Positions 16,824 through 52,176 of a stretch of 64,000 nt of DNA are shown piece by piece; position 1 is the stretch's first letter; each line of letters starts with the position of its first letter. This DNA comes from a virus (taxonomy: Duplodnaviria > Caudoviricetes), in the IMG/VR virus record IMGVR_UViG_2671180089_000001, positions 32,001 through 96,000 of that record; one strand, given 5' to 3'. The translations under genes were made by a program, and so were the position numbers. The notes below the pieces were generated by a model that worked only from the letters and a program-made list of their open reading frames with translations, had not been told where the DNA came from and made no database searches.

Positions 16824-16852
16824 ACCGTGCAGGGCGCGGCCGGTTAACGTCG
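16824..16852 (-). promoter_or_regulatory. late promoter motif (endolysin)
   Basis: CGACGTTA-N15-CACGGT. Confidence 0.7.
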
Positions 16853-16868
16853 CGCGCTGCCGGGAGGA

Positions 16869-17513
16869 CTACTCGTCGACGACCTCGGCGTCGACGACGG
16901 AGCCGTCCTCGAGCTCCGGCGGGTACTCAACAGAGAACAGGCTGCGGTCCAGGCGCTCGGCGAGCGCGGACAGGTCAACGGCCTGATCGTCGGGGCCGGC
17001 GGCGAGGTCGCCCAGGCCGGTGATCTCGACGGCCACGATCGCGTCCTTGCCGTAGTGCTCGCGGTGCTGCCGCTCCAGGTACCAGGCATCGGCGCGCCAG
17101 TCGGGCGACGTGCGGTCCTCCACCGTCTCCTCGACGATCTCGCCGGTCACGGAGTCGCGGAACTTCCTGGTGGTGACCTTGGTGACGATGCCGCCGTCAG
17201 CGACCCGCCGGATGTTCATCATGGCGCGCGCGGCCGCCGTGGCGCGGGCGGTGCGGACCTTCTCGTACAGGGCCGCGTACTCCTCCTCGGCCGGGTCCGG
17301 CTTCTCGCCTGCCTCACGGGCCTCGACCTCGACGCGGCCGCGGGCCATCCACGCCAGGAAGCTCGAACGGGAAACCCCGGCCATCTCGGCGGCCAGCTCG
17401 ACGGCAACGCCGGTACGCGACGCGCCGACGAGGCGCGCCTCGACGTCGTCGGAGAGCAGGCGTGGCCGACCGCTGCGACCTTCGGGCCGGCGTGCCTTGC
17501 GTCGGATGGACAT
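16869..17513 (-). CDS. probable terminase small subunit (HTH)
   Basis: GRPRLL...AAEMAGVSRSSFLAWM...DWRADAWYLER pattern typical of phage TerS-like proteins. Confidence 0.6.
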   Translation of the reverse strand: MSIRRKARRPEGRSGRPRLLSDDVEARLVGASRTGVAVELAAEMAGVSRSSFLAWMARGRVEVEAREAGEKPDPAEEEYAALYEKVRTARATAAARAMMNIRRVADGGIVTKVTTRKFRDSVTGEIVEETVEDRTSPDWRADAWYLERQHREHYGKDAIVAVEITGLGDLAAGPDDQAVDLSALAERLDRSLFSVEYPPELEDGSVVDAEVVDE

Positions 17514-17533
17514 GGTGTTCCTCGGAGGACGGG

Positions 17534-18169
17534 TCAGCGGCTGGACGTGAACATGTGCCCGCAGGCCGGGCAGGTGGCGTGCGGGGAGCGGCCCTCGTCG
17601 TCGGGGCTGAGGTCGCCGTCGCGTTCGCCGTCGTCGGGAAGGTGCAGCAGGGGCGTCTCGTCCTCGCGGCCGCCGCCGGGCAGGGTCTCGGGGTCGACCT
17701 GGCCGAGCAGCTTGTCGATCTCGTCGTGGGGGATGGCCAGGGAATCGAACAGCTCCGCGTCGCCGGTGGCCAGGTCCTCGAGGACCTCGGCAAGCTCGCG
17801 CGGATCCCATCCGCCCTCGCCGGGGAGCCGGTTGAGCTTGATGGCCAGGGCCTCGGCCTCGGCGTCGTTCTTCGAGGACCAGCCGCGCAGTACGGGGACA
17901 AGCCAGCCGCCGTCCTCGTCGATGACGATGCCGCTGGGTGCGCGCATCCCGCGGGACTGCATCTCGATCAGGGACTCACGGCGGCCGTGGCCGTGGAGAG
18001 TCTTCCGGGTGCGCTCGTCGACGACCGGGATCTCCACCAGGCCGTGCATGTCGATCGACGCGATCATGAGCTCGAGCTCGTGCCGCTTCGGGTTTCGGTC
18101 CGCCGGCATCAGGTCGGTCAGCGGCACGTAGGCGATGAAGCGCGGCGGCCTGGCGATCGTCTCGGTCAC
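17534..18169 (-). CDS. ParB/Srx N-terminal-domain protein with C-terminal zinc ribbon
   Basis: RNPKRH...IASIDMHG...PVVDE....LHGHGRRES; CPACGH. Confidence 0.8.
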   Translation of the reverse strand: MTETIARPPRFIAYVPLTDLMPADRNPKRHELELMIASIDMHGLVEIPVVDERTRKTLHGHGRRESLIEMQSRGMRAPSGIVIDEDGGWLVPVLRGWSSKNDAEAEALAIKLNRLPGEGGWDPRELAEVLEDLATGDAELFDSLAIPHDEIDKLLGQVDPETLPGGGREDETPLLHLPDDGERDGDLSPDDEGRSPHATCPACGHMFTSSR

Positions 18170-18220
18170 GGCTGGTGCGGTCCTCTCCCATGCGTCGATG
18201 TCCCGACGGCGGGGGAGGGC

Positions 18221-18296
18221 TGCGAGCCCGCGGACTTCAACCGCGGCGCCCCGCCTCGCAAGCAGGGCGATGCCGTCATGGCCGACCCCCACCCGC
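18221..18296 (-). ncRNA. tRNA-like structured element (degenerate)
   Basis: 5-bp stem with 7-nt loop CCTGC-TTGCGAG-GCGGG, 4-nt linker, 5-bp stem with 7-nt loop CGCGG-TTGAAGT-CCGCG; weak acceptor and D arms. Confidence 0.35.
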
Positions 18297-18387
18297 CACC
18301 GGGCCGCCTCCGCCCTCGTTCCGGTTGGGGCGGAGCCGGGGCCCCGCCGCTACCGGTGACGTCGCCGGGCGCTGCAGAACCGCGAGG

Positions 18388-18415
18388 AACGTAGAGGGGC
18401 GCGCCGCTTGTGTCG
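18388..18415 (-). promoter_or_regulatory. late promoter motif
   Basis: CGACACAA-N14-TACGTT. Confidence 0.6.
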
Positions 18416-18599
18416 CGTGCTCCACAAAGCATTTCCCTGGGTGTACTATTCGGAGTGGCTGGGAGAGCAACCCAGCTACCTGGGCCTAGGTGTAACAAAT
18501 TTCGGCCGGTGACGTACCTCCATACGACGCCCCGAAGACACCCCGCCCGGGACAACCCGAATCCTGGGCCTGGCGTCCGGGGAAGAGAGGAACACCGAG

Positions 18600-19202
18600 A
18601 TGTCGAACGACGTCGCCGACGACACCCAGGCCGAGGAGCCCATCGGCGTCCCGCTGTCCACCCTCGCGCTGGTCGGGGCACTTGCCCGCGCGATGGAGGA
18701 CCACCAGCGGGAAGTCATCAAACCTCGGAAGGACGCCCCGCGCGACCCCCTCGTCGAGGACTTCCTGGCGACGAAGAAGCCGGAACTCGTCGTCGAGATC
18801 GACGGCGAGAAGGTGGGCCACTACAAGGTCAACGTCACCAGGGACCGGTTCGAGGTCGCCGACGACTCAGCGTTCGAGGCGTACGCGGAGGAGAAGGGCG
18901 AGATTGACATCGTCATCGTCCCGAAGCCCGCGTTCGTGGATGCAGTTCTTGCACATGCGCAGCGTGACCCTGAGACGGGCACCATCTTCGATTCGCGGTC
19001 CGGCGAGGTCATCCCGGGTCTCCAGTTCGTGTCGGGCGGGAAGCCCACCGGCACCGTCACCTGGACTTGGAACAGGTTCAAGGGGCGCCCGATCGGTAAG
19101 GGCGTACTTCTGGCCGCGTACAAGCGCGGTCGGCTCGACGAGTTCCTCAAGGAGACGCCGGAGCTGTTGCCCAAGGCACAGCCCGGCGCGCGCGACGAGT
19201 GA
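18600..19202 (+). CDS. hypothetical phage protein
   Basis: GAGGAA RBS, 200 aa; first gene of the early block. Confidence 0.8.
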   Translation: MSNDVADDTQAEEPIGVPLSTLALVGALARAMEDHQREVIKPRKDAPRDPLVEDFLATKKPELVVEIDGEKVGHYKVNVTRDRFEVADDSAFEAYAEEKGEIDIVIVPKPAFVDAVLAHAQRDPETGTIFDSRSGEVIPGLQFVSGGKPTGTVTWTWNRFKGRPIGKGVLLAAYKRGRLDEFLKETPELLPKAQPGARDE

Positions 19203-19261
19203 CACCGACCGCTTGGGCCCGGCCCCCTGCGGCCGGGCCCCTCTCCCTGGGGACCAGCACC

Positions 19262-19540
19262 ATGACCGCCACCGCGACCGCCGCCCGGAAGCTCTCCGAC
19301 CGCGCGCACCGCATCGTCTTCGAACTCGCCCTGCACGGCGGTGAGTGGGTCGACGTCACCGACATCTACACCCGCCTTGGGCTGACCTCGCACCAGGTGC
19401 GCAGCGCCCTGAACGAACTGATCTACGCGGGCATGGCCGAGAGGGAACGGCGCCCGGTGGCCTCCGAAACCGGATGCCGCCGCACGCACCGGACCTACTT
19501 CCGCCTGACCGACGAAACCCCGAGCGAGGCCCCTGCATGA
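19262..19540 (+). CDS. small winged-helix DNA-binding protein
   Basis: VTDIYTRLGLTSHQVRSALNELIYAGM. Confidence 0.7.
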   Translation: MTATATAARKLSDRAHRIVFELALHGGEWVDVTDIYTRLGLTSHQVRSALNELIYAGMAERERRPVASETGCRRTHRTYFRLTDETPSEAPA

Positions 19541-20586
19541 GCCGCCTGACCAGCCCCACCGGGGTGCGAGTCAACCGGCGTCCCCGGTTCGTCGCCATCG
19601 ACTCCAAGACGATCCGGGACACCACCATCAGCTACCGCGCGCTGGGGCTGCTCGGCTACATCCTGGACCAGAAGGAGGGGTGGCAGGTCCGATCCGACCA
19701 GCTCTCCAAGGGCGAGGGACGCGAGGGGCGCGGCGCGGTCCGTACGGCGCTGCGCGAGCTCGCCGAGCGCGGCTACTACCGGCTCGAGCGCCGCAGGCTG
19801 CGCACCGGCAAGTGCGTGATGGGCACGGCCGTCTCGGAGTACCCCGTCGAGCAGTGGATCAAGGACCACGAGATTTTCAGCACCGTGTCCGACCCGGCCG
19901 TCCCCGTGGTCGAGCAGGAAGACGGCTCGTTCCTCGTCGAGTACCCCGACGGCACCTTCGGCAGCGACGGGTTCGAGTCGGACCCGTTCGACAACGAGGA
20001 GCCGCCCGCCGATCCCGAGCCGGAGCCGGAGCCGGAGGACAGCGGCGAGGAGGACGAGGACACCGCGGAGGAACCGCCGGCCGAGCCGGAGAAGCCCCCG
20101 GTCCGCCCCCGGCGCACCCGCCGCACCTCGGCGCAGAAGGCGGCCGACGACGAGCAGAAGGCCGCCGAGAAGAAGCAGAAGGACGAGAAGAAGGCCGCCC
20201 TGGACGCCGCCGTCGAGGCGGTCGCGAAGTGGTGGTGGGAGGACGCCGAGAAGCACCTCGGCAAGTACGTCGGGAAGACCAACGGCTACTTGGCCATGCG
20301 CGGCATGGTGAAGAAGGCCCTCGAGGCGGGCTACACCCAACGGCAGTGCGCCGATGCCCTGCGGCACGCACGTAAGCACCTGCCCAGCGCGCAGCAGTGG
20401 CAGACCGCCCTCGGAGTCGCCACGAACCACATCGTCCCGAGCCAGCCCACCGGCCGGATCCCGTACAGCGACAAGGCGACGTGGGGTGCCCAGAACGACG
20501 CCCCGCCGTCCACGCCCGGCGACGCCCCCACCCCGGCCGCTGACGACTCCGACGACGCCACGTTCGGCGTCATCGCACGATCGTAA
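19537..20586 (+). CDS. phage replication initiator (N-terminal HTH replisome organiser)
   Basis: IRDTTISYRALGLLGYIL....GW.....L.....EGRGAVRTALRELAERGY; directly upstream of a DnaC-like loader. Confidence 0.75.
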   Translation: MSRLTSPTGVRVNRRPRFVAIDSKTIRDTTISYRALGLLGYILDQKEGWQVRSDQLSKGEGREGRGAVRTALRELAERGYYRLERRRLRTGKCVMGTAVSEYPVEQWIKDHEIFSTVSDPAVPVVEQEDGSFLVEYPDGTFGSDGFESDPFDNEEPPADPEPEPEPEDSGEEDEDTAEEPPAEPEKPPVRPRRTRRTSAQKAADDEQKAAEKKQKDEKKAALDAAVEAVAKWWWEDAEKHLGKYVGKTNGYLAMRGMVKKALEAGYTQRQCADALRHARKHLPSAQQWQTALGVATNHIVPSQPTGRIPYSDKATWGAQNDAPPSTPGDAPTPAADDSDDATFGVIARS

Positions 20587-20598
20587 GGAGCGCACCCG

Positions 20599-21408
20599 AT
20601 GTCGGCCACCACTCACGCCGCCCCCGCGCGCGGCATGAACGCCCTCGGCGACCTGAGCGAGCACATCGTCCGGGTGCTGCAGAAGAACGGCGCCGACATA
20701 TCCCAGCTCGGCATGCCGCCCCAGCCCGAACCCGAAGACGGGCTCTGGGAGGACGTCTCGGTTCCCCAGGCCCGCGCCCGCCTGAACATGTGGAGGAACA
20801 GCATCTACGACGCAGCCCAGAACGAGTACCTGGCCTTCCGCTTCAGCCACCTTGACGACAACCAGAAGCCGAACACCCTGCGGGGGTGGCTCGACTCCCT
20901 GGTCGAGGCGAAGAAGCTGGATGCCCGCCCGTCGGTCCTCAACATGCTCATCCCGGGGCCCATCGGCAGCGGAAAGAGTGCCGCGGCGTGCGCCCTCGGC
21001 AACGAGGCCGCGGAGCGCGGGCTGTGGGCGCTGTACGTGAAGCACGCGACGTACCTGACGTGGCGTCGCCCCGACTCCGCGCCGCACAACATGAAGGCGT
21101 GGGAGGTCCGAAAGCGGTTCGTCGAGTGTGACCTCCTGGTCCTCGACGAGCTGTGCGGCGAGATGGACGTCACCGCGACCGAGTTCGCCCGGCGGGAGAC
21201 CATCGACCTGATCGACGCCCGTATCTCCGCCGGGCGGCCCACCGCGTACACCACCAACCTGCGCAGCCGCAGGCAGCCGGGAAGCCAGGCCATGGGCGTA
21301 GTCGACATCCTGGGGGAGCGGCTGCTGTCCCGGCTCGAGTCCTCGGCGCACCTGGCGAAGATCGTGGGCCCGGACCGGCGGAAGCCCGTGCAGGCTCTCG
21401 ACTGGTGA
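20599..21408 (+). CDS. DnaC/IstB-like AAA+ helicase loader
   Basis: GPIGSGKS, LLVLDEL, TAYTTNL, GERLLSRL, GPDRR. Confidence 0.9.
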   Translation: MSATTHAAPARGMNALGDLSEHIVRVLQKNGADISQLGMPPQPEPEDGLWEDVSVPQARARLNMWRNSIYDAAQNEYLAFRFSHLDDNQKPNTLRGWLDSLVEAKKLDARPSVLNMLIPGPIGSGKSAAACALGNEAAERGLWALYVKHATYLTWRRPDSAPHNMKAWEVRKRFVECDLLVLDELCGEMDVTATEFARRETIDLIDARISAGRPTAYTTNLRSRRQPGSQAMGVVDILGERLLSRLESSAHLAKIVGPDRRKPVQALDW

Positions 21409-21559
21409 TCCGGGGTCAAACGCCCTGTATGTCGCTGTTGCTGGCGGGGTGTGGGCGTCGGTAAAGGCGCAGGAGGCGGAAGACGCTATATCGTTTGGTC
21501 GACCCGGGAGGCCATGAGCATAAGCCGACCGGGGAGACCCGAACGAGAGGAAAGGTGTC

Positions 21560-22813
21560 TTGAAGCTGCCGTTCACCCGTGCCCGCGAGGGCGACGAACC
21601 GCAGACCCCCGTCGACCACGAGCCGAGCTCCACCGACTCCGCCGATTCCGGCGTCCCTCCGCTCAGTCTCTGGGAGCGCCGCGGTATCAAGCTGACCGCA
21701 CTGGGCGGAGCCGGCGTCGGCGGCCTCGGCTTCTACGCGTCGTTCGACGCCGTGTCCGCCAAGGCCCTGGAGTGGGGCTTTGACGAGCCGTGGGTTCTGC
21801 CCACCGCCATCGACTCCGCCATCCCCGTGTTCACGGGCGCCTACCTGTTCCTCATTCGCATGGACATGCGGCTGTGGTGGGCGCGGCTCGTCCCCTGGGC
21901 GCTGAGCCTGATCACCTGCGCCCTGAACGTCGCGGCCGGTACCTCGCTGTGGTCCAAGGTCGCGCACGGCGCCATGTCCCTGCTGTGGGTCGCCGTCTCC
22001 GAGATCGCCGCGCACACCTACGCCGTGCGGATCGGCGCGGCCACCGGCCGACGCCGCCGCATGGACAAGGTCCGGTGGGCCCGATGGATCCTGGCCCCAC
22101 TGCCCACCTTCCTGCTGTGGCGCCGCATGAAGCTGTGGGAGCTCACGTCGTACGACACGGTCCTCGAGCTCGAACAGGGACGGCTCCTCTACCAGGCAAA
22201 GCTCCGCGCCCGGTTCGGTCGGGCCTGGCGCACGAAGGCGCCCGTCGAGTCCCTGATGCCGCTCCGTCTCGCCCGTACCGGGATCCCGCTGCAGGAGACC
22301 GCCGCGGACGGGCTACGCGCTGCGGGCCTCGAACTGGGCATCTTCGCCCCTCCGGTCGCCCCCGTTGAGGAGCTCCCGGCCCTTCCCACACCCGTGCCGG
22401 CAGCCGCCGTACCTGCGGCGTCCCTGAAGCCGCGCCGGATCACGGCCACCGTCCCCTCACAGCCGGCGAAGGTCCTCAAGCCGGCGCCGACGCCGGAGGA
22501 GCCCACGGCCGCGGCCGCGGAGGAGCCGGGCGAGCCGCAGCCGTATGTGGTCCCGTCGTGGAGCACCGAAGGGGAGCTGCGCGAGATCCTCGTGCAGGTC
22601 ATCGACGGCAAGCACCGCGACGTGTTCGACGGCCCTCTGACCGGTGCTGCGATTGCGGAGGTCCTCGGCCAGAGCGAGGGCAACGGGCGCAAGGTCCGCG
22701 GTCGCATCATCAAGGAGTACGCCGCGCAGAGGGGTGTCCAGATTCCGCCGCGCGCGACCGTCGACGACGTCTTCGCCGCGTTCGACCAGGCGCTGACGGC
22801 AACCGGCTCGTAA
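21560..22813 (+). CDS. DUF2637-family (Spd-like) membrane protein
   Basis: GFYASFDAV...PTAID, four TM helices, RWILAPLPTFLLWRRMKLWE; typical of Streptomyces conjugative elements. Confidence 0.8.
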   Translation: MKLPFTRAREGDEPQTPVDHEPSSTDSADSGVPPLSLWERRGIKLTALGGAGVGGLGFYASFDAVSAKALEWGFDEPWVLPTAIDSAIPVFTGAYLFLIRMDMRLWWARLVPWALSLITCALNVAAGTSLWSKVAHGAMSLLWVAVSEIAAHTYAVRIGAATGRRRRMDKVRWARWILAPLPTFLLWRRMKLWELTSYDTVLELEQGRLLYQAKLRARFGRAWRTKAPVESLMPLRLARTGIPLQETAADGLRAAGLELGIFAPPVAPVEELPALPTPVPAAAVPAASLKPRRITATVPSQPAKVLKPAPTPEEPTAAAAEEPGEPQPYVVPSWSTEGELREILVQVIDGKHRDVFDGPLTGAAIAEVLGQSEGNGRKVRGRIIKEYAAQRGVQIPPRATVDDVFAAFDQALTATGS

Positions 22814-22875
22814 GGCATCCTGCCCCTACCCGTACCGAAGCGGCGGGCCCCCGACCTGGGGTGCCCGCCGCCTGC

Positions 22876-23304
22876 ATGATCGGACCCTTCATGACACCGG
22901 AGATCCTGGCCCGGATCGCCACCGCCCGCGCCGCCCGCGACCTGTCCGACCTCGCCCGGCAGGCAGTCGCCACCACCGCCGAGACCACCAGCCCGGCCGA
23001 GCGCATCCGTCGGGCGCGCGAGCTGCGCGAGCTGACCAATCAGCTCGTCGACCTGGTCGTGCTCGCCGAGTCGTTCGGGGGCGCGTCTTGGGAGGAAATC
23101 ACGGCAGCACTTGGCCGGCGCGACCCGGGCACGGTGCGGAGGGAGTTCGCCGGCGACATCGCCGACTGGGGCGGGAAGTCCGAGGAGGAGCTCGAGCGCG
23201 CGGCCGAGGGGTACGAGGCGCTTGACCAGTGGTACGCGCGGCACCGGGAGGACCAGGACCCCGAGGGTTCAACTCCCGTCGCCGATCTGCTCAACCGGCA
23301 TTGA
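22876..23304 (+). CDS. hypothetical protein (HTH-like, GASWEEITAALG)
   Basis: Coding bias in the 3' part of track ORF 22558..23304; start uncertain. Confidence 0.65.
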   Translation: MIGPFMTPEILARIATARAARDLSDLARQAVATTAETTSPAERIRRARELRELTNQLVDLVVLAESFGGASWEEITAALGRRDPGTVRREFAGDIADWGGKSEEELERAAEGYEALDQWYARHREDQDPEGSTPVADLLNRH

Positions 23305-23424
23305 GCTATCCCGCCGAGCGGGTAGAATAGTAAGCCGATGGCAACGGCGAGAGGCTAACCCCTCTGCCGTTGCATCCTCCGCGGGAGAGCAACCCGGGGA
23401 ACCACGAAGTAGAGGAACAGCCAG

Positions 23425-25194: not shown

Positions 25195-25199
25195 CGTGA

Positions 25200-27427: not shown

Positions 27428-27465
27428 GGGTGTTGCCCTTCATGCGTGGGGTGCGTGTCGGGCGG

Positions 27466-27494
27466 ACTGTGCGCGCGGGCGGCCCCTTGCGTCG
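27466..27494 (-). promoter_or_regulatory. late promoter motif (holin)
   Basis: CGACGCAA-N15-CACAGT. Confidence 0.7.
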
Positions 27495-27503
27495 CGTGCT
27501 GGC

Positions 27504-27932: not shown

Positions 27933-27994
27933 CGGTCGTCAGTAGGGATGCGCGGGAGCCGGGGCCCGAAAGCCCGCGGCTCCCCGCAGCCGGA

Positions 27995-28023
27995 AAGCTG
28001 CACCATGCGAGGGGCTTATGTCG
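27995..28023 (-). promoter_or_regulatory. late promoter motif
   Basis: CGACATAA-N15-CAGCTT, followed by a GC hairpin at 27950-27988. Confidence 0.65.
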
Positions 28024-28399
28024 TTGCGTTCATCGTCTCGGCGGTCGGCGCGGGCCCGACGCCGGCGACGGCGTTCCATCCCGCACGCACTGCCTCGAGG
28101 ATCTGCTCGTCGGAGATCGCTGCGGCCATGGTTGCGGTATCGGTTGAGCTGGCGGCCGCCGCGGCGGCGAGCAGCGTTGGGGAGACGACGAGGCCGACCA
28201 TCATGGAGGCGGCTTGTGCCTCCGAGGGGCTGAGTACGGTCTTCGCCAAGTTCCAGCGCAGCGGGTAACCGGGCGACGTCGACGCCTCAACGAACACTTC
28301 CTGCGCGATGACGGCGATGGCCATGCGGACGCGTGGCAGTAAAGACGCCTCGGAGGCCAGGGCGCACATCGTGGTCAAGGACAGGGGTAGAGCGGGCAT
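28016..28399 (-). CDS. hypothetical tail-region protein containing a TTA codon
   Basis: GAGGAAG RBS; in-frame TTA at 28340-28342. Confidence 0.75.
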   Translation of the reverse strand: MPALPLSLTTMCALASEASLLPRVRMAIAVIAQEVFVEASTSPGYPLRWNLAKTVLSPSEAQAASMMVGLVVSPTLLAAAAAASSTDTATMAAAISDEQILEAVRAGWNAVAGVGPAPTAETMNATT

Positions 28400-31624: not shown

Positions 31625-31632
31625 GGCGCGGG

Positions 31633-31661
31633 ATGGTCAACGGCCCGGGTGGTTAGTGTCG
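31633..31661 (-). promoter_or_regulatory. late promoter motif (near-leaderless)
   Basis: CGACACTA-N15-GACCAT, 8 nt before the ATG. Confidence 0.7.
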
Positions 31662-31669
31662 CGTCCTGG

Positions 31670-33865: not shown

Positions 33866-33900
33866 CTCGTATCTCCTCTGCTGGTCCTGGTGGACAGCGG

Positions 33901-33929
33901 AGGATCACGGGCCCGGAGCGCTAACGTCG
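33901..33929 (-). promoter_or_regulatory. late promoter motif
   Basis: CGACGTTA-N15-GATCCT. Confidence 0.7.
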
Positions 33930-33939
33930 CGTCCTGGCC

Positions 33940-39751: not shown

Positions 39752-39806
39752 GTGCGTGACCTCTTCGTGGGTGCGTAGCTGGGTTGCCGGGTGTGGCAGC
39801 GCGCGG

Positions 39807-39835
39807 ACAGTGGCAGCGCTGCACGGCTTGTGTCG
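39807..39835 (-). promoter_or_regulatory. late promoter motif
   Basis: CGACACAA-N15-CACTGT. Confidence 0.7.
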
Positions 39836-39890
39836 CGCCGTGCGGCCGCCCCCGCCTGAGCAGGGCGAAGAGGGCGGCCGCAGGGCTGGG

Positions 39891-40724: not shown

Positions 40725-40763
40725 GGCGGGCTTCTCCTTGGTGTCCGGTGGTGGGGCGCGGAC

Positions 40764-40792
40764 ACCTTGGAGAGCCGAAGTGGTTAACGTCG
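40764..40792 (-). promoter_or_regulatory. late promoter motif (major tail)
   Basis: CGACGTTA-N15-CAAGGT. Confidence 0.7.
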
Positions 40793-40797
40793 CGTCG

Positions 40798-41223
40798 TCA
40801 CGGATGCACGGTGACGGAGAGGTTCATGACCCACCTGGGTTGGCCATCGACGAGGGGCGACCACACGAGTAGCCCGGACGGCTTGATGCCGCTGAGGACC
40901 GGCTGGCCGGGGACGTGGGGCGCCTCCCCGAGCTGCTGGGCGGCCTGGGCGCAGCGCAGCAGGATCTTCCGCAGCTCGGCCTTGCCCGGCCATCCGCCGG
41001 GGTCGCCGTACGCCTCGAGCGTCACCTCCGGGGAGATCGCCCAGTTCATGTCCCGCAGGTCCCCGCCGGGGCCGTGGTCGATGCGCAGGTGCGGCCAGGG
41101 AGCCTCTGCGATCCCGGATACCCGGCCGGGGCCGCCGAGCGCGTCGGCGACCTCCGGGTGTTCCAGCAGCCAGACACGGAGCGCGGAGACCGGATCCGCG
41201 TCCGCCACGGTGGGCTCGCTCAT
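40798..41223 (-). CDS. tail terminator-like protein
   Basis: Size and position directly upstream of the major tail gene. Confidence 0.6.
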   Translation of the reverse strand: MSEPTVADADPVSALRVWLLEHPEVADALGGPGRVSGIAEAPWPHLRIDHGPGGDLRDMNWAISPEVTLEAYGDPGGWPGKAELRKILLRCAQAAQQLGEAPHVPGQPVLSGIKPSGLLVWSPLVDGQPRWVMNLSVTVHP

Positions 41224-41504: not shown

Positions 41505-41511
41505 GCCGCGC

Positions 41512-41540
41512 ACTGTGCGCGCCGAACGCGGCTTGTGTCG
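41512..41540 (-). promoter_or_regulatory. late promoter motif (leaderless)
   Basis: CGACACAA-N15-CACAGT-N7-ATG. Confidence 0.75.
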
Positions 41541-41545
41541 CGCCG

Positions 41546-42082
41546 TCAGCGCCGCGCGGCGACGATACCGGCCGCGCGGGACATGAAGTGTGTGCCGTCG
41601 GCCCGCAGATTGCCCGGGTAGACGGTGCCCACCTCGGCCTCGACGACCATGGGTGCCTGGACGGAGACGGTGACGGTGACCCGCTTCCCGGCGATGACCG
41701 GCTGTCCGGTGTTGATGTGTCGGGCGATGCCTTCCGGGTCCTTGTGCGCGCGGCAGCGGCAGTTCTTGAGGTTGGCGATGGCGCGGGAGCTCCTGTCGAG
41801 CGGCTCGAGCATGTACGTCGTGGGGCCGACGCCGCGGTGCACCATGTCCCAGCGCATGGAGTCGATCGCGAACCGCAGGTTCCCGGGGACCTCTTGCCCG
41901 TTGGCGGAGACGTGCGTCGGGCGGACCTTGTCGTCGCCCATGGTTATCCAGCGCTTGGTGGGCGGGGCCAGGCGCTTCGCCTCGATCTCGACCTGGTGGG
42001 CGATGCGCTGTACCGCGGGGGCGAGCATCCGGGCGAGCTGCTGCTCGAGGCCCTGCGCGGGTGTGAACTTCGCTCCGGCCAT
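41546..42082 (-). CDS. neck protein (HK97 gp10-like) with an inserted MuF-like segment
   Basis: EAKRLAP...EVGT...FMSRA frame, containing KRWITMGDDKVRPTH...NCRC. Confidence 0.6.
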   Translation of the reverse strand: MAGAKFTPAQGLEQQLARMLAPAVQRIAHQVEIEAKRLAPPTKRWITMGDDKVRPTHVSANGQEVPGNLRFAIDSMRWDMVHRGVGPTTYMLEPLDRSSRAIANLKNCRCRAHKDPEGIARHINTGQPVIAGKRVTVTVSVQAPMVVEAEVGTVYPGNLRADGTHFMSRAAGIVAARR

Positions 42083-43284: not shown

Positions 43285-43295
43285 CCCGCGGCTCC

Positions 43296-43844: not shown

Positions 43845-43884
43845 GGGTGGCTCCCTCTCGGGGGTTCGTGTCCGGACGGCGCGC

Positions 43885-43913
43885 ACCATGCACACCCGGC
43901 GCCGCTTGTGTCG
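43885..43913 (-). promoter_or_regulatory. late promoter motif
   Basis: CGACACAA-N15-CATGGT. Confidence 0.7.
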
Positions 43914-43986
43914 CGCCCTGCCTCGACCTGGCGGAGCGTGACCCGGGCGGCCCTCAAGCGGTGCGGAGGGACGCCCGGGTCAGGGG

Positions 43987-44448: not shown

Positions 44449-44483
44449 GGGGTTGTTCCCTTCTGGGGTCGGTGGCGCGGCGA

Positions 44484-44512
44484 AGGATGGGGCACGGGGG
44501 CGCCTTGGGTCG
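44484..44512 (-). promoter_or_regulatory. late promoter motif
   Basis: CGACCCAA-N15-CATCCT. Confidence 0.65.
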
Positions 44513-44536
44513 CGTGCTACCGGGGGAAGAGGGGAG

Positions 44537-44563
44537 TTGCCCAATTGGGCAAGAATGATCTTG
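44537..44563 (+). repeat. palindromic motif, copy 2 (candidate parS)
   Basis: ttgcccaattgggcaagaatgatcttg, 27 bp identical to copy 1. Confidence 0.75.
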
Positions 44564-44591
44564 ATGGGGCGGGACTTCCCATGTGGATCAC

Positions 44592-46058: not shown

Positions 46059-46130
46059 GGGTACGTCCGTTCTGCCCCACGCGCCGGGCCCCCGGCTGGC
46101 GGCCTGCTGAAGACGGTGAGGCGTGCGGGG

Positions 46131-46159
46131 ATGTTGTGAAACTAGTTCCGCTTGCGTCG
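46131..46159 (-). promoter_or_regulatory. late promoter motif (methyltransferase)
   Basis: CGACGCAA-N15-CAACAT. Confidence 0.7.
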
Positions 46160-46162
46160 CGC

Positions 46163-47407
46163 TCAGAGGATCCGCAGGTCGTCCCAGCCGTCCGGGCCGA
46201 CGCTGAACACCATCAGGCCCGAGGAGGAGACCTCGCCGGAGCGGACGGCGTACCAGTCGCTGCCGTTGTCCAGGGTCGGGGCCTGGACCCAGAGCCTGCC
46301 GTTGCCCATCTGCTGCGCTCGGAAGTGGTGAAAGTGGCCTGTGATGAGAATGTCGGCGTCGGCCACGGGCTGCCGGCCGAACGTCTGCCCTCGCCACCAG
46401 TCGCCGGCCTTGTCGGGGCGTGCGTACTGGTGCCCATGGGCCAGGCCCACGATCTTCCCGGCGACGTCGAGCGACACGGTGTCTCGCCACCGCTCCGGCA
46501 TGACGAAACTGACGTGTCCGTACGCGTCCTCGTTGCGGGCGTAGGCGTCGGCGATCTGGGACATGACCTCAATGCCCCAGTCGTCGACGGGCGGCCCGAC
46601 GGCGTCCTTCCCGCGGCGTACGCGGCCGTGGTTGCTGCCGCAGGTCGCTGCGACGACGCGGCCGAACTTCCCGGCGAGGCGGTCGAGGCCCTCGAAGGTG
46701 ATGCGCCGGTGGACGCGGACCATCTCGGTCAGGGTCAGGTCGTTGGTGAACGCCTGCTGCGTCGTGTTCTCGAAGCCCTCGACGCAGTCTCCGGCGTCGG
46801 CCCAGTAGGCGACGGACGGAGCCCTGCCGACGGCCTTGAGGTCGCGGATGTGGTCGTCGAGCCGGTCGAATCGGTCGGCGACCCGGGCGATGAGCTCAGG
46901 GGTGCCGCCGTCGCGGCCCACCTTTCCGGCCTGGGCGTCGGCATAGACCACGATCAGGGCGCGCTCCGCGGTGTCCACGGCTGCGCGGGGCTTGCGACGG
47001 CGGCGCATCGTGTCGCGGACGAGCGCGTCAAGGTCGCCCGCCGACTGCCACGCGGGGGCAGCCGGCTCGATGACGTACCGGCAGCGCCATACCGCGCGGG
47101 TGACGGCGTCGTCGCCCTGGTTGTCGCGGTGCCAGGCAGCCGGGTCGTGCTTCGCCTCGACCAGGCGGACGCGGAAGCCCTCGGGGATGGCGAGCCCCAT
47201 CTCCTCGACGCGCTCGCGCCAGTCGGCCTCTCCCGCGGGCGGCTTGTCGGCGGGCGGGGCGGTGACGACCATCGTCCCGCCCTCGTAGCGGACGCCGGAC
47301 TCCCAGCCGCGGGGCGCGGCCGGGTAGACGCGCTCCGTCTGGGGGGCCTGACTCTGGCCGTGGGGCACAGGCTCGAGGAGCGCCTGCAGCTCGTTGTTCA
47401 GGGTCAT
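46163..47407 (-). CDS. calcineurin-like metallophosphoesterase
   Basis: ADAQAGK, GDCVEG, SNHG, AHGHQ, GHFHH. Confidence 0.85.
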   Translation of the reverse strand: MTLNNELQALLEPVPHGQSQAPQTERVYPAAPRGWESGVRYEGGTMVVTAPPADKPPAGEADWRERVEEMGLAIPEGFRVRLVEAKHDPAAWHRDNQGDDAVTRAVWRCRYVIEPAAPAWQSAGDLDALVRDTMRRRRKPRAAVDTAERALIVVYADAQAGKVGRDGGTPELIARVADRFDRLDDHIRDLKAVGRAPSVAYWADAGDCVEGFENTTQQAFTNDLTLTEMVRVHRRITFEGLDRLAGKFGRVVAATCGSNHGRVRRGKDAVGPPVDDWGIEVMSQIADAYARNEDAYGHVSFVMPERWRDTVSLDVAGKIVGLAHGHQYARPDKAGDWWRGQTFGRQPVADADILITGHFHHFRAQQMGNGRLWVQAPTLDNGSDWYAVRSGEVSSSGLMVFSVGPDGWDDLRIL

Positions 47408-47679
47408 CACTCGCACCGGCATCCGTTCGGCTTCCCGCGGCGCCTGTGCCGGTTGACCGTGTAGGCCGTCACGGGGTCGCCGTAGCGGCTGAGCGTCTCG
47501 GCGATGGCCGTGGCGGAGACGCTGGTCGTGTCCAGCACTGCGCGCAGCGATGCGGCAACGTCGGCGTCTGCTGCTTCCAGGAGGGCACCGACGCTGCAGC
47601 GGGGGCCCCGGTGAGCGGCGGGGGCGCCCGTGAGGGCCTCCAGCTCCTGGGCGAGGCCAATGGGTTGTTTCTCGATCAC
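47407..47679 (-). CDS. small hypothetical protein (HTH / Cys-His)
   Basis: GGAGG RBS; C...VNRHRRR....CRC; stop overlaps the next start. Confidence 0.7.
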   Translation of the reverse strand: MIEKQPIGLAQELEALTGAPAAHRGPRCSVGALLEAADADVAASLRAVLDTTSVSATAIAETLSRYGDPVTAYTVNRHRRRGKPNGCRCE

Positions 47680-47757
47680 CAGCGTCCTCCGTCGTCCTGT
47701 GGTGGTACGTGGGAGGGGGCGCACCCGTGCGGGTGCACCCCCTCACTGCGGCACGGA

Positions 47758-49059
47758 TCAGCCGGCCGGCTGGGTCCAGGTGCCGATGACGAAGGACTCC
47801 GGCCGCGGGACCTCGAGCGCCAGGCGCTCGTCGGCGCGGAAGGTGATCAGGCCCTTCTCGTAGTTCTCCGCGTTCTCCGAGGAGACGGTGACGGAGACGT
47901 TCTCGCGGTCGTGGAGCTGCGCGCCGAGACCGAACGCACCGATGAGGAAGTCGGTGTCAGCCATCGCGGTCGTCTCAACGACGTTGAGGCGCCACACCTT
48001 CTTCTCGGCGCCGATGGCGACGGCGATGGCGACGCGGAAGGCGCCGTTCTTGTCCTCCTCGACCTCGACGTGCTCCCACATCGTGGGCGACAGGACGATG
48101 CCGGTCGGGTCGTACTCGGCGAGCAGGGCCTTCGTGATGCTGCGCCGGATCTGGACGCTGTACTGGTCGGTCGCGATACCGGTGTACTGCTGAACGCCCG
48201 GGGTGTTGTAGATGCCGGTGAGGGACTGGCCGTCGCCGACGGAGTGCAGGAGGTCCCAGTCCTCGGCGTACTTGACGCCCTCCACCATGCGGGTGTTGAT
48301 GAAGGTCTTGAGGCGGGGCTCGTCGGACAGGATGTTCTTGTGCGCGTCGAGCAGGTGGGCGACCTCGGCGACCGGGTACATCACGGGCGTGAGCGTGAGC
48401 TTCGACCGCGGGGCGCGGCCCCAGGTGTCGGTGTCGGCGCCGGTGGCCGGCGACGTGCCGTCCGCGGCGTACCGCTCCTTGACCTGGCGGGCGTTGTTCG
48501 TCCAGCCGGTCTCTCGCGCGCCGTAGAGCACGGCGTTCTTGGTGGTCGACTTCGGGAACAGGTCGCGGATGTGGAACTTCCGGAACGGGCGCTCCGTGAT
48601 GCCCAGGTTCTGCGCGGAGCCCAGGGTCTGGTGGGTCACGGTGCCCGCGGACAGGGAGAAGATGGACTTCCCCTCGATGTCGGCGCGGATGTACGGCTTG
48701 TCACGGAAGTGCTGGGCGGTGGCGCTCTGGAAGGAGCCGGACTCGACGAAGAGGTCGCCGAGGGATTTCTCCTCGACGCCCATGGGGCGCTGGCCGTAGT
48801 GGCTGGCCGCGGCCGGCGCGGACTCCGGGGCCTCGAGGTACTGCTTGATCTCGGTCAGGCCCTGCTCGGCGTCGATGAGGGCCTTGATCTCCTGAGCCTC
48901 GCCGGAGACCTTCCGGAACTCCCGGGCCTGCTCGGTGGAGACGACGAACTGGCCGCCGTCCTCGACCTTGAAGGTCTGGCTGATCCGCTCGGCTTCGGCG
49001 GACTTGACCTGGAGCGCCTTCTGCAGCTCCTCGATACGGCTGGTGGTGGCGGTAGGCAT
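47758..49059 (-). CDS. major capsid protein (HK97 fold)
   Basis: IRDLFP, EDWDLL...GDGQSLTGI, ITFRADERLAL.V.RPESF. Confidence 0.95.
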   Translation of the reverse strand: MPTATTSRIEELQKALQVKSAEAERISQTFKVEDGGQFVVSTEQAREFRKVSGEAQEIKALIDAEQGLTEIKQYLEAPESAPAAASHYGQRPMGVEEKSLGDLFVESGSFQSATAQHFRDKPYIRADIEGKSIFSLSAGTVTHQTLGSAQNLGITERPFRKFHIRDLFPKSTTKNAVLYGARETGWTNNARQVKERYAADGTSPATGADTDTWGRAPRSKLTLTPVMYPVAEVAHLLDAHKNILSDEPRLKTFINTRMVEGVKYAEDWDLLHSVGDGQSLTGIYNTPGVQQYTGIATDQYSVQIRRSITKALLAEYDPTGIVLSPTMWEHVEVEEDKNGAFRVAIAVAIGAEKKVWRLNVVETTAMADTDFLIGAFGLGAQLHDRENVSVTVSSENAENYEKGLITFRADERLALEVPRPESFVIGTWTQPAG

Positions 49060-49141
49060 TTGGGGTGCTCTCCCTGTGCTGGGTGCGGTTGACGTGCGTC
49101 GCTCGCCCGGCCAGCACCGGGACGCCTCAACGCGAGGCGTG

Positions 49142-49170
49142 ATGAAAGAGAAGGAGAGGGGTTAACGTCG
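49142..49170 (-). promoter_or_regulatory. late promoter motif (capsid; deviant -10)
   Basis: CGACGTTA-N15-TTTCAT. Confidence 0.5.
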
Positions 49171-49171
49171 C

Positions 49172-49207
49172 GTGCTGCCCGCTTGGGACGTCAAGAGCGG
49201 GCAGCAC
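49172..49207. terminator. stem-loop after the protease gene
   Basis: gtgctgcccgct / agcgggcagcac stem. Confidence 0.65.
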
Positions 49208-49283
49208 ACGGGGTTTGACCTGCTGCTTTGTTCTCGGAGGTGTGTAGGGCCCGCAGGGAGAGGTGCGGGGTCGGGGATGTAAC

Positions 49284-51209
49284 TCAGCTCCGCATCAGGG
49301 CGAGTGCGGCCTTCACCTCGTCGGGGTCCAGGCGGACGGTGTCCTCCGGCTTTGCCGCCGGTTCGGCGTCCTCTTCCTCGTCGTCGTCCTCGGGGCCGGT
49401 GTTTTCGTCGTCGCCGAAGGTGCTGTCGTCCCAGAGGTCCAGTCCGGCACTGCCGCGGGCCGGGCCGCCCGTGGCCGGGGGTTCCTCCTCGTCGCCGACG
49501 TCGAGGCCCTTCGCGGACAGTGCGGCGATCAGTTCCTGGACCTTGTCGCGGACGTCCTCGAGCTGCTCCGGGCTGGCCGTACTGCTGCTGACACGGGCGG
49601 TCGCGTCGGCGAGTGCTCCGACGGTCGGCTGTACGACGCGGGCGTCGACGTCCTCGTCTGCGGAGGCGGTGCGGGCCGCGCTAGTGCCCTCGGGCACGAC
49701 GATCGTGGCGAGCTCCACGGGCTGCGGCTTGTCGAGGGTGATCTCGCCGGCCGTCACCGTGTACGGGATGGCGTAGTGGCTGCTGCGCCGCTCGTCCTCG
49801 GTGTGCACGGAGACGATGACGCGGTCGGGGTAGGTGCCCTCGATGCAGGTCCAGGTGTTGCCGTCCTGGTCGAGGAGTTCGCGGACGGCGTCGGCAAGAC
49901 GGGCGCGGAACTGCTCCTGCGACTCGGGCAGCGTCTTGGGCGACATCACAGGGGCCTCCAGCGGGGCGGAGTGGCTCTTGGCCTCGGCGACCATGGAGCG
50001 GGCGGATTTGTGCTCGATGCGGGGCAGTGCGCGGGCGGACTTCACAGCGGCGTGCGCGGACTTCTTCTCGCCGCCAAGGGCCTGGTAGCGGCCCATGACT
50101 CCGTCGGCGAACTCCTTGGCCTGGGGCGAGGCCTTCGGGCCAGGGGCTTGGGGGAGGGCGGCGCCGGCCAGGAGAGCCCACGGCGTCTCGCGGCACTCCG
50201 GCCGCAGGAGGGGCATGTCCGGGAGGGCCGTGATCGGCCACCAGGCGGTTACCTCGGTTGCGTCGCCCTGGGGGTCGTCTGGGTTCGTGACTCGGCGCTC
50301 TCCGTGTGGCGCGTTGATCGGCACGGAGTCCTCGGTGGGGACCACGGCGACGTAGCCGCGGTAGATGCCGTTCGGGGCGGTCCAGGAGCCGACGACGCTG
50401 GCCGTTCCCGGCAGGGTCGACCCAGTCTCCTCGGCCCACTCGCGCAGGGCGGCCGCCAGGGGATCCTCGCCGTCCTCGAGGTGCCCTCCGGGGATTTCCC
50501 AGGTGCCTGCCGCGGGGTCCTCATCGTCGAGGGCGCGCTGAATCATGAGCAGTCGGCCGGTGTCGGCGGCCTTCACTGCCAGGCCTGCGACCTTGATGGC
50601 TTCCGCGTTCGGTGTGGTGACGACGTCGATCTCGACGTGGGACGGGGTGGTCTTGTACTCGAGTCCCTCGTATCCGCCGCCGGTGACGGCCGCGGACTTT
50701 ACCTCGAGGGCGCGCGTCAGGGGGTGCGCACCGTGCAGGACGGGCGAGACCTCGAAAAGGTCCAGGTCGTGAATGATCCTGACGCCGTCGCCACGCTTGC
50801 TCGCGCCGGTGTCGGAGACGCGGTAGCCGATGCTGAACGCGGCCTGCTTGTGCTCGTGCCACTGCTTGACCTGCTCGTAGGCGTCTCGGCCCTGACGGGT
50901 GCGCAGGTTGTAGATCACAGTCGCCACGAGGGCGCCGGCTTCGGCGGGCCAGTCGCCGGGGACGTCCCGGAACCGAGGGTCGCCGGGCAGCCATTCCTCG
51001 CACTCGACGACGACGCCGACGGGGTCTTTCCACCCGTGGTGCCACACGGTCTTGACGGGGCGTGCGGCCAGGGTGCGGGCGAAGGCGCCGGGCACGATGA
51101 GGTCGGCGACCTCGTCGACCACGCCGGTGACGGCGTAGATAGCCCGGCTGGTGCCTCGCTGGGAGGTGCGGGGTACGGCGGATCTGGTGGGTGGAGCAGC
51201 GGTCGGCAC
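49284..51209 (-). CDS. HK97-type prohead protease fused to a NUDIX hydrolase and an acidic C-terminal domain
   Basis: DLIVPGAF..TL, WHH....PVG, FSIGY, LFEVSPVLHGA; NUDIX box WEIPGGHLEDGEDPLAAALREWAEETG. Confidence 0.9.
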   Translation of the reverse strand: MPTAAPPTRSAVPRTSQRGTSRAIYAVTGVVDEVADLIVPGAFARTLAARPVKTVWHHGWKDPVGVVVECEEWLPGDPRFRDVPGDWPAEAGALVATVIYNLRTRQGRDAYEQVKQWHEHKQAAFSIGYRVSDTGASKRGDGVRIIHDLDLFEVSPVLHGAHPLTRALEVKSAAVTGGGYEGLEYKTTPSHVEIDVVTTPNAEAIKVAGLAVKAADTGRLLMIQRALDDEDPAAGTWEIPGGHLEDGEDPLAAALREWAEETGSTLPGTASVVGSWTAPNGIYRGYVAVVPTEDSVPINAPHGERRVTNPDDPQGDATEVTAWWPITALPDMPLLRPECRETPWALLAGAALPQAPGPKASPQAKEFADGVMGRYQALGGEKKSAHAAVKSARALPRIEHKSARSMVAEAKSHSAPLEAPVMSPKTLPESQEQFRARLADAVRELLDQDGNTWTCIEGTYPDRVIVSVHTEDERRSSHYAIPYTVTAGEITLDKPQPVELATIVVPEGTSAARTASADEDVDARVVQPTVGALADATARVSSSTASPEQLEDVRDKVQELIAALSAKGLDVGDEEEPPATGGPARGSAGLDLWDDSTFGDDENTGPEDDDEEEDAEPAAKPEDTVRLDPDEVKAALALMRS

Positions 51210-51268
51210 GGCGGGGAACCTCCGGCGGTGGACAGTGGGCCGCCGGGCACCGTGCCGTTCGCGTTGAC

Positions 51269-51487
51269 CTACTGTCCTGCGCTGCCCTCCGCAGGCTGCT
51301 GAGGCCGCGCCTCAGCTTCGGAGCGGGCCATGGACCACCCGCGGTTCCAGTAGCGGTATCCGAACCGCTCCTCGACGCTGCCGTACATGTTGTACGGGCA
51401 GGCGTCGGAGGGGTCTCCGGCCTCGTACGCGGCCTTGCCCTCGTTGAGGCGGTCCTGGAAGTTCTGACGGTCGAGCTGAGTTGCCAC
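51269..51487 (-). CDS. ribosome modulation factor (Rmf)-like small protein
   Basis: EGKAAYEAG.....CPY.......YWNRGW matches the Rmf G..A...G.....CPY......W..GW pattern. Confidence 0.65.
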   Translation of the reverse strand: MATQLDRQNFQDRLNEGKAAYEAGDPSDACPYNMYGSVEERFGYRYWNRGWSMARSEAEARPQQPAEGSAGQ

Positions 51488-51499
51488 GGTCGGATCTCC

Positions 51500-52141
51500 T
51501 TACTGGCCCGCGAACATCGAGTCCTGGACGCCGCGGTCGCCGGCCGGGGGCGGGCCGCTCGGGGCGGCTCCTCCTGGTGCGTTCGCTCGGTCCTCGCCGT
51601 TGCGGTGCGTCTGCGTCATCTGGGCACCGTCAACGTCGGTCGCCCACGCGTCTGGGTCGGTGTAGCGCCACACTTGGCCCGCGCCGTCCCGCACCCACCC
51701 GGTCAGTGTGCCGTCTGCGGCCTTGTCGAGCCAAGCCTGTTCGCCGCTGCTGCCGGTGTACGCGCACCAGGCTTCGGGCCCGTCGGGGTCGGTTTCGTCG
51801 CCCTCGTTGTACTCGTCGCCTGCCCACGGGCGGGAGTCGTCGTCGGGTTGGTCCAGGGCGGCGCTGGGGTCTCCGCCGCCTTCTCCCTCGGGCTGAGCAC
51901 CCGGGTCCGGCGGCGCAGCGGGGTTCTCGCCGAGGTTGTCCGTGGGCGCGGCCGGGGTCGCCGTTGGGTCCTGAGCCAGGTTCTCGTCCAGGTCCTCGGT
52001 CAGCTCGTCGGAGACGCCGGGGGCGACCTCGTCGAGCGGAGCCTCTTCGGTGCCCACGGTCTCCTCGTTCTCGTCGTCTTCCTCCCCGAAAGGCTTGCCG
52101 CCCTGGGGGAGAGCCTTGATGGCGAATCCGTATCTGGTCAC
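51500..52141 (-). CDS. acidic hypothetical protein
   Basis: Leaderless GTG 6 nt after the -10; 213 aa. Confidence 0.75.
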   Translation of the reverse strand: MTRYGFAIKALPQGGKPFGEEDDENEETVGTEEAPLDEVAPGVSDELTEDLDENLAQDPTATPAAPTDNLGENPAAPPDPGAQPEGEGGGDPSAALDQPDDDSRPWAGDEYNEGDETDPDGPEAWCAYTGSSGEQAWLDKAADGTLTGWVRDGAGQVWRYTDPDAWATDVDGAQMTQTHRNGEDRANAPGGAAPSGPPPAGDRGVQDSMFAGQ

Positions 52142-52147
52142 AGGCGG

Positions 52148-52176
52148 AGGATGGGGGCACGGGGTGGCTTATGTCG
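52148..52176 (-). promoter_or_regulatory. late promoter motif (leaderless)
   Basis: CGACATAA-N15-CATCCT-N6-GTG. Confidence 0.75.

Follow-up and report, generated by a model that had tools for sequence, protein, structure and literature searches.

Recurrent fixed-spacing promoters of a Streptomyces phage or phage-plasmid and the ECF-type sigma factor that probably reads them

The DNA analysed here is a window of 64,000 nucleotides, bases 32001-96000 of the 126,324-base virus record IMGVR_UViG_2671180089_000001 (70% G+C; estimated to be 97% complete), in which a bipartite motif of almost invariant spacing recurs upstream of virion, lysis and packaging genes. These sites are predicted to be promoters, and we hypothesize that they constitute late promoters which are probably read by an extracytoplasmic function (ECF)-type sigma factor encoded by the element itself. 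On its minus strand the window carries genes for the major capsid protein, a prohead protease-NUDIX fusion, the tape measure protein, minor tail and tail-fibre proteins, an exonuclease-like protein and a DNA methyltransferase. A 13-kb stretch of the element is 84% identical to the Streptomyces phage Gilgamesh (129 kb, isolated on S. lividans), whose annotations include ParA/ParB-like proteins, integrases, the large and small terminase and an 'RNA polymerase sigma factor', and parts of Streptomyces plasmids of 114-133 kb are 75-82% identical to it. Judged from its capsid and tail genes, from the similarity to Gilgamesh and the plasmids and from the Gilgamesh annotations, the element is a siphovirus-type phage or phage-plasmid of Streptomyces, and its family is seen on contigs of 125-135 kb in many Streptomyces and Kitasatospora genomes.

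A previous sequence-only reading of this DNA had listed 14 minus-strand copies of a fixed-spacing motif between positions 16824 and 52176. The strict pattern CGACRYWA-N15-NANNNT is matched 11 times in the window, always on the minus strand and always at one of these 14 coordinates, where 100 dinucleotide shuffles yielded 0.28 on average and never more than 2. A 46-nt weight matrix, which was built from the strict matches and then iterated, finds 26 sites of at least 20 bits on the whole 126-kb element, whereas 30 shuffles gave on average 0.63 and at most 3 sites above 14 bits. The motif is thus real and all 14 listed sites belong to it, those at 44484 and 49142 by their matrix scores and the one at 18388 by its full-strength box half-score (Table 1). 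The window total amounts to 15 sites, which include the short-spacer site at 18388 and a plus-strand site overlooked before, with its box C at 23350, 46 nt ahead of gene 23425-25194, and with the same deviant site kept in Gilgamesh at 74782. Further sites lie outside the window, at record positions 4394-18295, 96283 and 99423 and, on the plus strand, 24322, 115815 and 124456, and the motif is restricted neither to late genes nor to the interval 16824-52176. With -9.8 bits, the plus-strand copy proposed at 10100-10128 does not belong to the motif; it sits among ATAGATCG-like repeats.

The consensus may be written as A-N5-CGAC-RY-WA-RC-N13-CANNNT-sCGC and contains about 26 bits of information. 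Box and -10 hexamer are separated by the same distance in 25 of 27 pairs and by one base less in the other two. The CGAC box starts 23 nt ahead of the -10 hexamer and covers -35 to -26, and the whole upstream block A-N5-CGAC-RY-WA-RC extends from about -41 to -26, thus including the -35 position. A logo was derived from 415 distinct site variants of the element, Gilgamesh and fetched relatives, all selected with the matrix and hence partly circular. Taking the C of CGAC as position 0, it shows in the upstream flank an A at -6 (85%) and C-G at -2 and -1, followed by C0, G1, A2 and C3 (G, A and C at or near 100%), R4 (A 38%, G 55%), Y5 (C 63%, T 32%), W6, A7 (99%), R8 (A 42%, G 57%) and C9 (84%). 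The spacer holds almost no information, and the -10 reads C23 (90%; T 6%), A24 (94%), two free positions, g (63%) and T28 (100%), and then s, C30, g and C32.

The promoter nature of the sites is supported by their position. In fact, 25 of the 26 lie in intergenic DNA, which makes up 13.3% of the element by our own gene calls, and automatic gene calls place a co-oriented gene start 6-82 nt past the -10 for 24 of them, when only about 4.8% of random oriented positions are followed by such a start. At the two remaining sites (record positions 96283 and 99423) the start chosen by the gene caller is the ATG of CATGGT, and 7 nt past the -10 there is an ATG or GTG in frame. Start codons 6-8 nt past the -10 are present at six sites of the element, three outside the window and the three previously singled out as leaderless, namely 31633 (8 nt), 41512 (7 nt) and 52148 (6 nt). 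Likewise, an ATG or GTG opening at least 90 codons stands 6-8 nt past the -10 in 116 of the 399 relatives' variants with enough downstream sequence, in 92 of them at exactly 7 nt, although these variants are orthologues of about two dozen promoters and the counts are not independent. Such starts occur at 0-5 nt in only 2 variants and at 9-15 nt in 6, are almost lacking at 9-20 nt, and have a second mode at 30-41 nt. Because of the intergenic position, the orientation towards gene starts, the fixed spacing and the peak of start codons at 6-8 nt, the sites are predicted to be promoters, many of them leaderless, in agreement with the sequence-only reading, which took its sites for real promoters; given the peak at 7 nt, leaderless mRNAs beginning about 7 nt after the -10 are expected. 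That the sites are instead oriented protein-binding sites, such as the repressor 'stoperators' known from Cluster A mycobacteriophages or packaging or partition sites, appears highly improbable. Many oriented copies in short intergenic gaps would suit that role, and in the plasmid state the box might serve as an operator too, but a second block with a -10-like A...T at fixed spacing, and a sharp peak of start codons 7 nt downstream, are features of promoters rather than of operators.

The arrangement is conserved in relatives, in which the distance from the -10 to the start codon is kept across diverged genomes. Gilgamesh possesses 24 sites at equivalent places, and two distant 130-kb plasmids, which share only the capsid region with the element at about 75% nucleotide identity, possess, in 43 kb each, 9 and 10 sites that score above 10 bits. 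In an alignment of the capsid-upstream region of four diverged members, made without reference to the motif, nothing but the box is conserved as a block ahead of the highly conserved 5' leader. This leader of the major capsid gene (82 nt; window 49060-49135, minus strand) itself contains long invariant runs in four relatives, for instance 26 bases within CGTCCCGGTGCTGGCCGGGCGAGCGACGCA, while the coding DNA of the same four is only about 75% identical; its folding is no better than that of shuffles (z = -0.36), and an Rfam search found no family for it or elsewhere in the window.

In order to separate host from element factors, five whole genomes carrying a family member (7.4-9.2 Mb each, 40.7 Mb in total) were searched with the composite motif, not with bare GACAC. 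All 37 matches to CGCGACRYWARS-N13-CANNNT fall on one element contig of 125-131 kb per genome, with none in the reversed control, and the looser GACRYWARS-N13-CANNNTSC gives 44 of 45 matches on element contigs and 1 elsewhere, with 2 in the reversed control. Since a host regulon should leave chromosomal copies, and none are seen above the control, this element-only distribution favours an element-encoded factor, a possibility which the sequence-only reading had held in reserve. Outside the family, no sites occur in 50 kb of an unrelated Micromonospora plasmid whose ECF sigma factor is 32% identical, nor are there any above 8 bits in 38.5 kb of Gordonia phage GMA6, which is the closest capsid relative there, has tightly packed structural genes and is not among the 30 phage records matching the sigma factor. 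Viral contigs of 50-75 kb with several motif copies were considered as a second independent family and rejected, being 39-58% complete fragments of the same family with capsid proteins 87-92% identical; for this reason they provide no independent test of co-occurrence.

The same distribution bears on the other proposal of that reading, in which host WhiA and WhiB co-activate the promoters together with HrdB and tie virion production to sporulation. The host genus and the letters GACA(C) are shared with the known WhiA/WhiB promoters, and the presence of GACAC in 9 of the 26 boxes and the leaderless nature of sepX, a WhiA/WhiB target promoter described in an excerpt of PMC10243135, are in its favour. 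According to that source, however, the DNA ahead of the -35 is contacted by WhiB, which is seated on sigma region 4, and still further upstream WhiA binds GACAC, whose strand and distance to the -35 vary; GACA also represents the last four bases of the -35 consensus TTGACA. Here, in contrast, the box lies at the -35 itself, in one orientation and at one spacing, 17 of the 26 boxes are not GACAC, the conserved letters being G, A and C plus the later W and A, the composite motif has no copies on the host chromosomes of the five genomes, and the element carries no WhiB-family gene. The resemblance to GACAC is most readily accounted for by a -35-like element rather than a WhiA site, and we consider the dependence on WhiA and WhiB, and with it the connection to sporulation, barely credible.

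A candidate for the element-encoded factor is the product of gene 12563-13243, a 226-aa ECF-type sigma factor with regions 2 and 4 only. Its domain scores, obtained on a longer 271-aa reading frame from 12428, are clear: Sigma70_r2 (6.7e-20) and Sigma70_r4_2 (8.4e-12) in Pfam, TIGR02937 with 99 bits over a cut-off of 42.9 in NCBIfam, and a sigma factor family of PHROG (4.8e-31). Among the specific NCBIfam models (subfamily or equivalog) the best is the BldN family TIGR02952, with 98 bits and thus below its cut-off of 206.45, and the best solved relative is an ECF sigma, PDB 6dxo (3.5e-21). The protein is 82% identical to Gilgamesh gp92 ('RNA polymerase sigma factor'), 68-78% to its counterparts in close plasmids and about 36% to those in distant ones. 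It is found in all eight plasmid and phage relatives examined and in three of five fragmentary viral contigs (39-58% complete); in the other two that part of the genome may simply be missing. A search for relatives of the sigma locus returned only seven close family loci and unrelated ECF sigmas. The order of sigma, an overlapping open reading frame (ORF) of about 128 aa, an ORF of about 520-600 aa and a single-stranded DNA-binding protein (SSB) gene is kept in three of four distant-relative loci; the remaining locus stops short of SSB, and its small ORF lacks the overlap. Neither of the two ORFs that follow sigma has a Pfam, NCBIfam or PHROG match, and no recognisable anti-sigma domain adjoins the sigma. 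In region 4 a helix of the form R-x-L-x-x-R-x-L, typical of ECF sigmas generally, is kept between close and distant relatives. After region 4.2 the protein continues in a C-terminal extension of about 45 aa (window 13080-13240) with the pattern P-x-x-D/S-S ... V-E-x-L-L, kept even in the 36%-identical relatives, which could be a regulatory tail.

Owing to the nearness of this protein to the BldN model, if below the cut-off, and to 6dxo, a similar specificity of host sigmas is conceivable, and a host alternative sigma, for instance the developmental ECF sigma BldN, might read the motif, so that late expression would follow the host programme. Nevertheless, off-element matches in the five genomes were no more frequent than in the reversed control, and we regard this alternative as quite improbable.

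Upstream of the sigma gene the weight matrix finds no late-type motif, and the region contains instead GTGACT-N17-TATGCT, in which most columns are invariant across eight aligned relatives. A second conserved element, the 21-nt ATTTCCCTTGGTGTACTATTC, occurs with up to 4 mismatches in 8 copies here and 8 in Gilgamesh, before non-structural genes, and contains a host-like -10 hexamer, TACTAT. Its copy in the window (18431-18451, plus strand) stands back to back with the late-type site at 18415, and the others are at record positions 6322, 15119, 20053 and 22023 (minus strand) and 22103, 26907 and 31285 (plus strand); ATTTCCCTTGGTGTACTATTC probably represents an early promoter and may include an operator. 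The first -10 position is T, as in host promoters, in the 8 copies of TACTAT and in TATGCT of the sigma gene, and C in 90% of the late sites.

Based on this contrast of C and T in the -10, on the rigid two-block design, on the WA-A/G-C core of the box and on the element-specific distribution, the element's sigma factor is favoured as the reader. ECF promoters have an AAC core in their -35 and the layout AAC-N16-CGT, to which the WA-A/G-C core of the late motif, followed by GT 17 nt later, may correspond; the late motif has in addition a strong C-A four bases before the T. We infer that this sigma, and not another element protein, reads the motif, as we also infer the temporal class of the genes. 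In the proposed mechanism the sigma gene would first be transcribed by a host sigma from its conserved host-type promoter, and host core RNA polymerase carrying the phage sigma would then read the bipartite promoters, with CANNNT-sCGC as the -10 region and a transcription start about 7 nt after the T, turning on the capsid, tail, lysis and terminase genes together with a set of small genes. On balance we think this dependence on the element's sigma somewhat better than an even guess, which makes it the probable explanation.

Several points weigh against it. The connection between sigma and motif is a co-occurrence within one phage family, the members of which share many other genes, and between the close and distant subgroups, in which the motif is the same, sigma identity falls to about 36%, so that the DNA-reading residues would have to be kept. 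ECF sigma genes are usually, though not universally, autoregulated, and this one is not preceded by its own type of promoter. Moreover, the best-kept letters of the -10, A and T, are four bases apart and resemble the A-11/T-7 pair of primary sigmas, and ECF sigmas are described, in an excerpt of PMC6101532, as flipping a single base. Finally, the upstream block, 16 bp long and centred near -30, is in our judgement longer than expected for a sigma region 4 site alone. The last two features would be accommodated if HrdB reads the CANNNT -10, an activator or 'appropriator' encoded by the element binds the CGAC box and replaces -35 recognition, and the ECF sigma serves other genes; the element encodes several helix-turn-helix proteins, and an element-specific motif suits any element-encoded factor. 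However, C at the first -10 position is not HrdB's choice, and the other promoter-like elements keep T. Although the ECF sigma would then need targets of its own, no second bipartite motif was noticed by eye in 72 upstream regions free of the late motif (no formal motif search was made), and the only other repeated element in those regions has no -35 at promoter distance. In addition, gp87, a candidate regulator of Gilgamesh encoded beside the lysin gene, has no counterpart at that position here. Such an activator acting with HrdB, in the manner of MotA and AsiA of T4, is a serious alternative, albeit clearly the less likely one.

A bolder version of the dependence on the element's sigma can be formulated, in which a sigma switch, and not a classical repressor acting on one late operon, decides between plasmid maintenance and virion production. 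The BldN-like ECF sigma would be made from a host-type promoter and gated by the two co-transcribed proteins, acting as a new anti-sigma module, and once released would fire some 26 promoters, a quarter of them leaderless, in the structural, lysis and packaging genes. Signals of host development could act on this gate, given the likeness of the sigma to a developmental sigma of the host. We offer this as a speculation and rate it as doubtful.

With respect to the layout of transcription, 12 of the 26 promoters start within 14 nt of the stop codon of the upstream co-directional gene, leaving no space for a terminator at these junctions, and in six of the 12 that stop codon ends with the A at -6. 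A scan for hairpins followed by T found 4 sites in 34901-54800, all on the plus strand (8.1 in shuffles), and hence none on the minus strand of that interval, and 9 in 15000-34900, two of them on the minus strand (5.9 in shuffles); Streptomyces terminators often lack T-tracts, and the scan is therefore weak. A scan with the sigma-70 consensus gave 0-1 matches per region, which is the chance level, and among the RNA runs listed for window 39000-48999 each contained 10% or less of the sampled words. Since many of the promoters closely follow an upstream stop codon, and considering the result of the hairpin scan, they look like serial internal boosters along co-directional arrays and not like the promoters of insulated units. 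Of the earlier suggestion that the late genes are split into many small units, the repeated promoters stand, and the separateness of the units is put in question by the tight junctions and the lack of minus-strand hairpins in 34901-54800.

The closest known system in its logic is, in our comparison, that of Salmonella phage 7-11, like which the element appears to work without being a member of it. As reported in part of PMC8948821, eight late promoters of that phage, GTAAtg-N16-aCTA, are read by host core polymerase with gp47, and its early promoters use sigma-70; gp36 of phiEco32, with its helper gp79, is a related phage-sigma system (PMC12276001, in part). The likeness, a phage sigma gene together with a repeated conserved promoter before late genes, is functional only, and neither phage is among the 30 phage records that match the sigma at E<=1e-3 by tblastn. 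Furthermore, the element differs in its high-GC actinomycete host, in being also a plasmid, in its consensus and in having about three times as many promoters, around a quarter of them leaderless, and the case made here is sequence-based. Cellular ECF (group 4) regulons are similar in the sigma with regions 2 and 4 only and in the stringent two-block promoter of about 26 bits with a rigid spacer. They differ in that here the sigma gene lacks its own promoter type and a recognisable adjoining anti-sigma domain, the -10 is A-N3-T plus CGC, and the regulon is a virion and lysis programme. In T4 middle promoters a MotA box centred near -30 replaces the -35 at a fixed distance to the -10, and sigma-70 is remodelled by AsiA. 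The late sites share with them the conserved box near -30 and the fixed distance to a -10 with A and T, but their -10 disfavours the T preferred by primary sigmas.

In our literature search no described regulon of a phage-encoded sigma was found for Streptomyces phages, nor any account of Gilgamesh. Should the sigma link prove right, the regulon of a sigma factor from an actinomycete phage would be defined here, and an explanation would be at hand for how virion genes are kept silent and later switched on together in a large phage-plasmid family; within phage-sigma systems the element would be unusual in the very many promoters and the large leaderless share. With a length of about 40 bp, no host copies in 40.7 Mb and often no leader, the promoters are compact and orthogonal to the host, and in combination with the sigma they might provide Streptomyces engineering with an orthogonal expression switch. 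A tempting link between phage production and sporulation is, on the other hand, removed as unsupported. The sites in the window and the parts of the sigma locus are collected in Table 1.

Table 1. Predicted late promoters and sigma-locus features in the window (window coordinates)
Feature	Coordinates	Strand	Remarks
Promoter	16820..16858	-	Upstream of lysin (amidase, Amidase_2) gene 15735-16787; strict match; 35.3 bits; start codon 36 nt past -10
Promoter variant, spacer one base shorter	18384..18421	-	Box half-score 22.2 bits; -10 TACGTT; genes behind it 17534-18169 (Gilgamesh counterpart ParB-like) and 16869-17513 (counterpart small terminase), identities from Gilgamesh gene order
Promoter, deviant box AGAGGCTAAC	23344..23382	+	28.9 bits; upstream of 23425-25194
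Promoter	27462..27500	-	Upstream of 27104-27427; strict; 31.0 bits
Promoter	27991..28029	-	Upstream of 27504-27914; strict; 24.2 bits
Promoter, leaderless (ATG 8 nt past -10)	31629..31667	-	1070-aa tail fibre-like gene 28412-31624; strict; PHROG tail matches
Promoter	33897..33935	-	Upstream of minor tail gene 32888-33865; strict and matrix
Promoter	39803..39841	-	Upstream of 39221-39751 (Gilgamesh counterpart: tail assembly chaperone) and tape measure gene; strict and matrix
Promoter	40760..40798	-	Upstream of 39891-40724; strict and matrix; box kept in orthologous intergenic regions
Promoter, leaderless (ATG 7 nt past -10)	41508..41546	-	Gene 41223-41504; strict; position -6 is last base of upstream stop codon
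Promoter	43881..43919	-	Upstream of 43296-43844; strict; 40.4 bits
Promoter, box CGACCC	44480..44518	-	Upstream of 43987-44448; 31.0 bits
Promoter	46127..46165	-	Upstream of DNA methyltransferase-like gene 44592-46058; strict and matrix
Promoter, deviant -10 TTTCAT	49138..49176	-	Major capsid gene 47758-49059; 82-nt conserved leader; 25.5 bits
Promoter, leaderless (GTG 6 nt past -10)	52144..52182	-	Gene 51500-52141; strict and matrix
ECF-type sigma factor gene, proposed reader of the promoters	12563..13243	+	Sigma70_r2, Sigma70_r4_2, Sigma70_ECF
Two genes without family match (129 aa, 520 aa), overlapping/following sigma gene	13227..15175	+	No Pfam, NCBIfam or PHROG match
Host-type promoter candidate of sigma gene, GTGACT-N17-TATGCT	12428..12456	+	Both hexamers kept in 8/8 aligned relatives

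Other features of the element and its family were also noted. Strict motif matches are found in very large contigs, at L042, L063 and L066 (one 1.59-Mb Streptomyces contig) and L074 (an 873-kb contig), and since these are not of plasmid size some members of the family may be integrated; Gilgamesh carries two tyrosine integrase genes. In the structural arm, one ORF (window 49284-51209, minus strand) joins a prohead serine protease domain (Peptidase_S78) to a NUDIX hydrolase domain, and the gene at its position in the distant plasmids is annotated as 2'-5' RNA ligase family. The same arm holds a giant ORF of about 3,900 aa (window 52521-64000, minus strand, running on to about 64247), with a predicted leaderless start from the strongest promoter of the element (42.7 bits). 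The part of it within the window has no Pfam match. Its Gilgamesh counterpart, a hypothetical protein, measures 4,624 aa, and those of the distant plasmids exceed 5,200 aa and carry the annotation DEAD/DEAH helicase family.

At window positions 10000-10115 (plus strand), several ATAGATCG-like repeats precede two small winged-helix/RepL-like genes (10276-10728 and 10731-11195), and they look like operators or iterons of a plasmid replication or control region. Several small genes are preceded by a conserved 5' leader in which a short GC hairpin of the GGNGG-agagca-CCNCC type is followed by AACCAACGAAGnGAGGAAC and then by the start codon; outside the window such leaders are present at record positions 17407, 18850 and 21973 (minus strand) and 22189, 24375 and 31335 (plus strand), and they recall the start-associated sequences of Cluster K mycobacteriophages.

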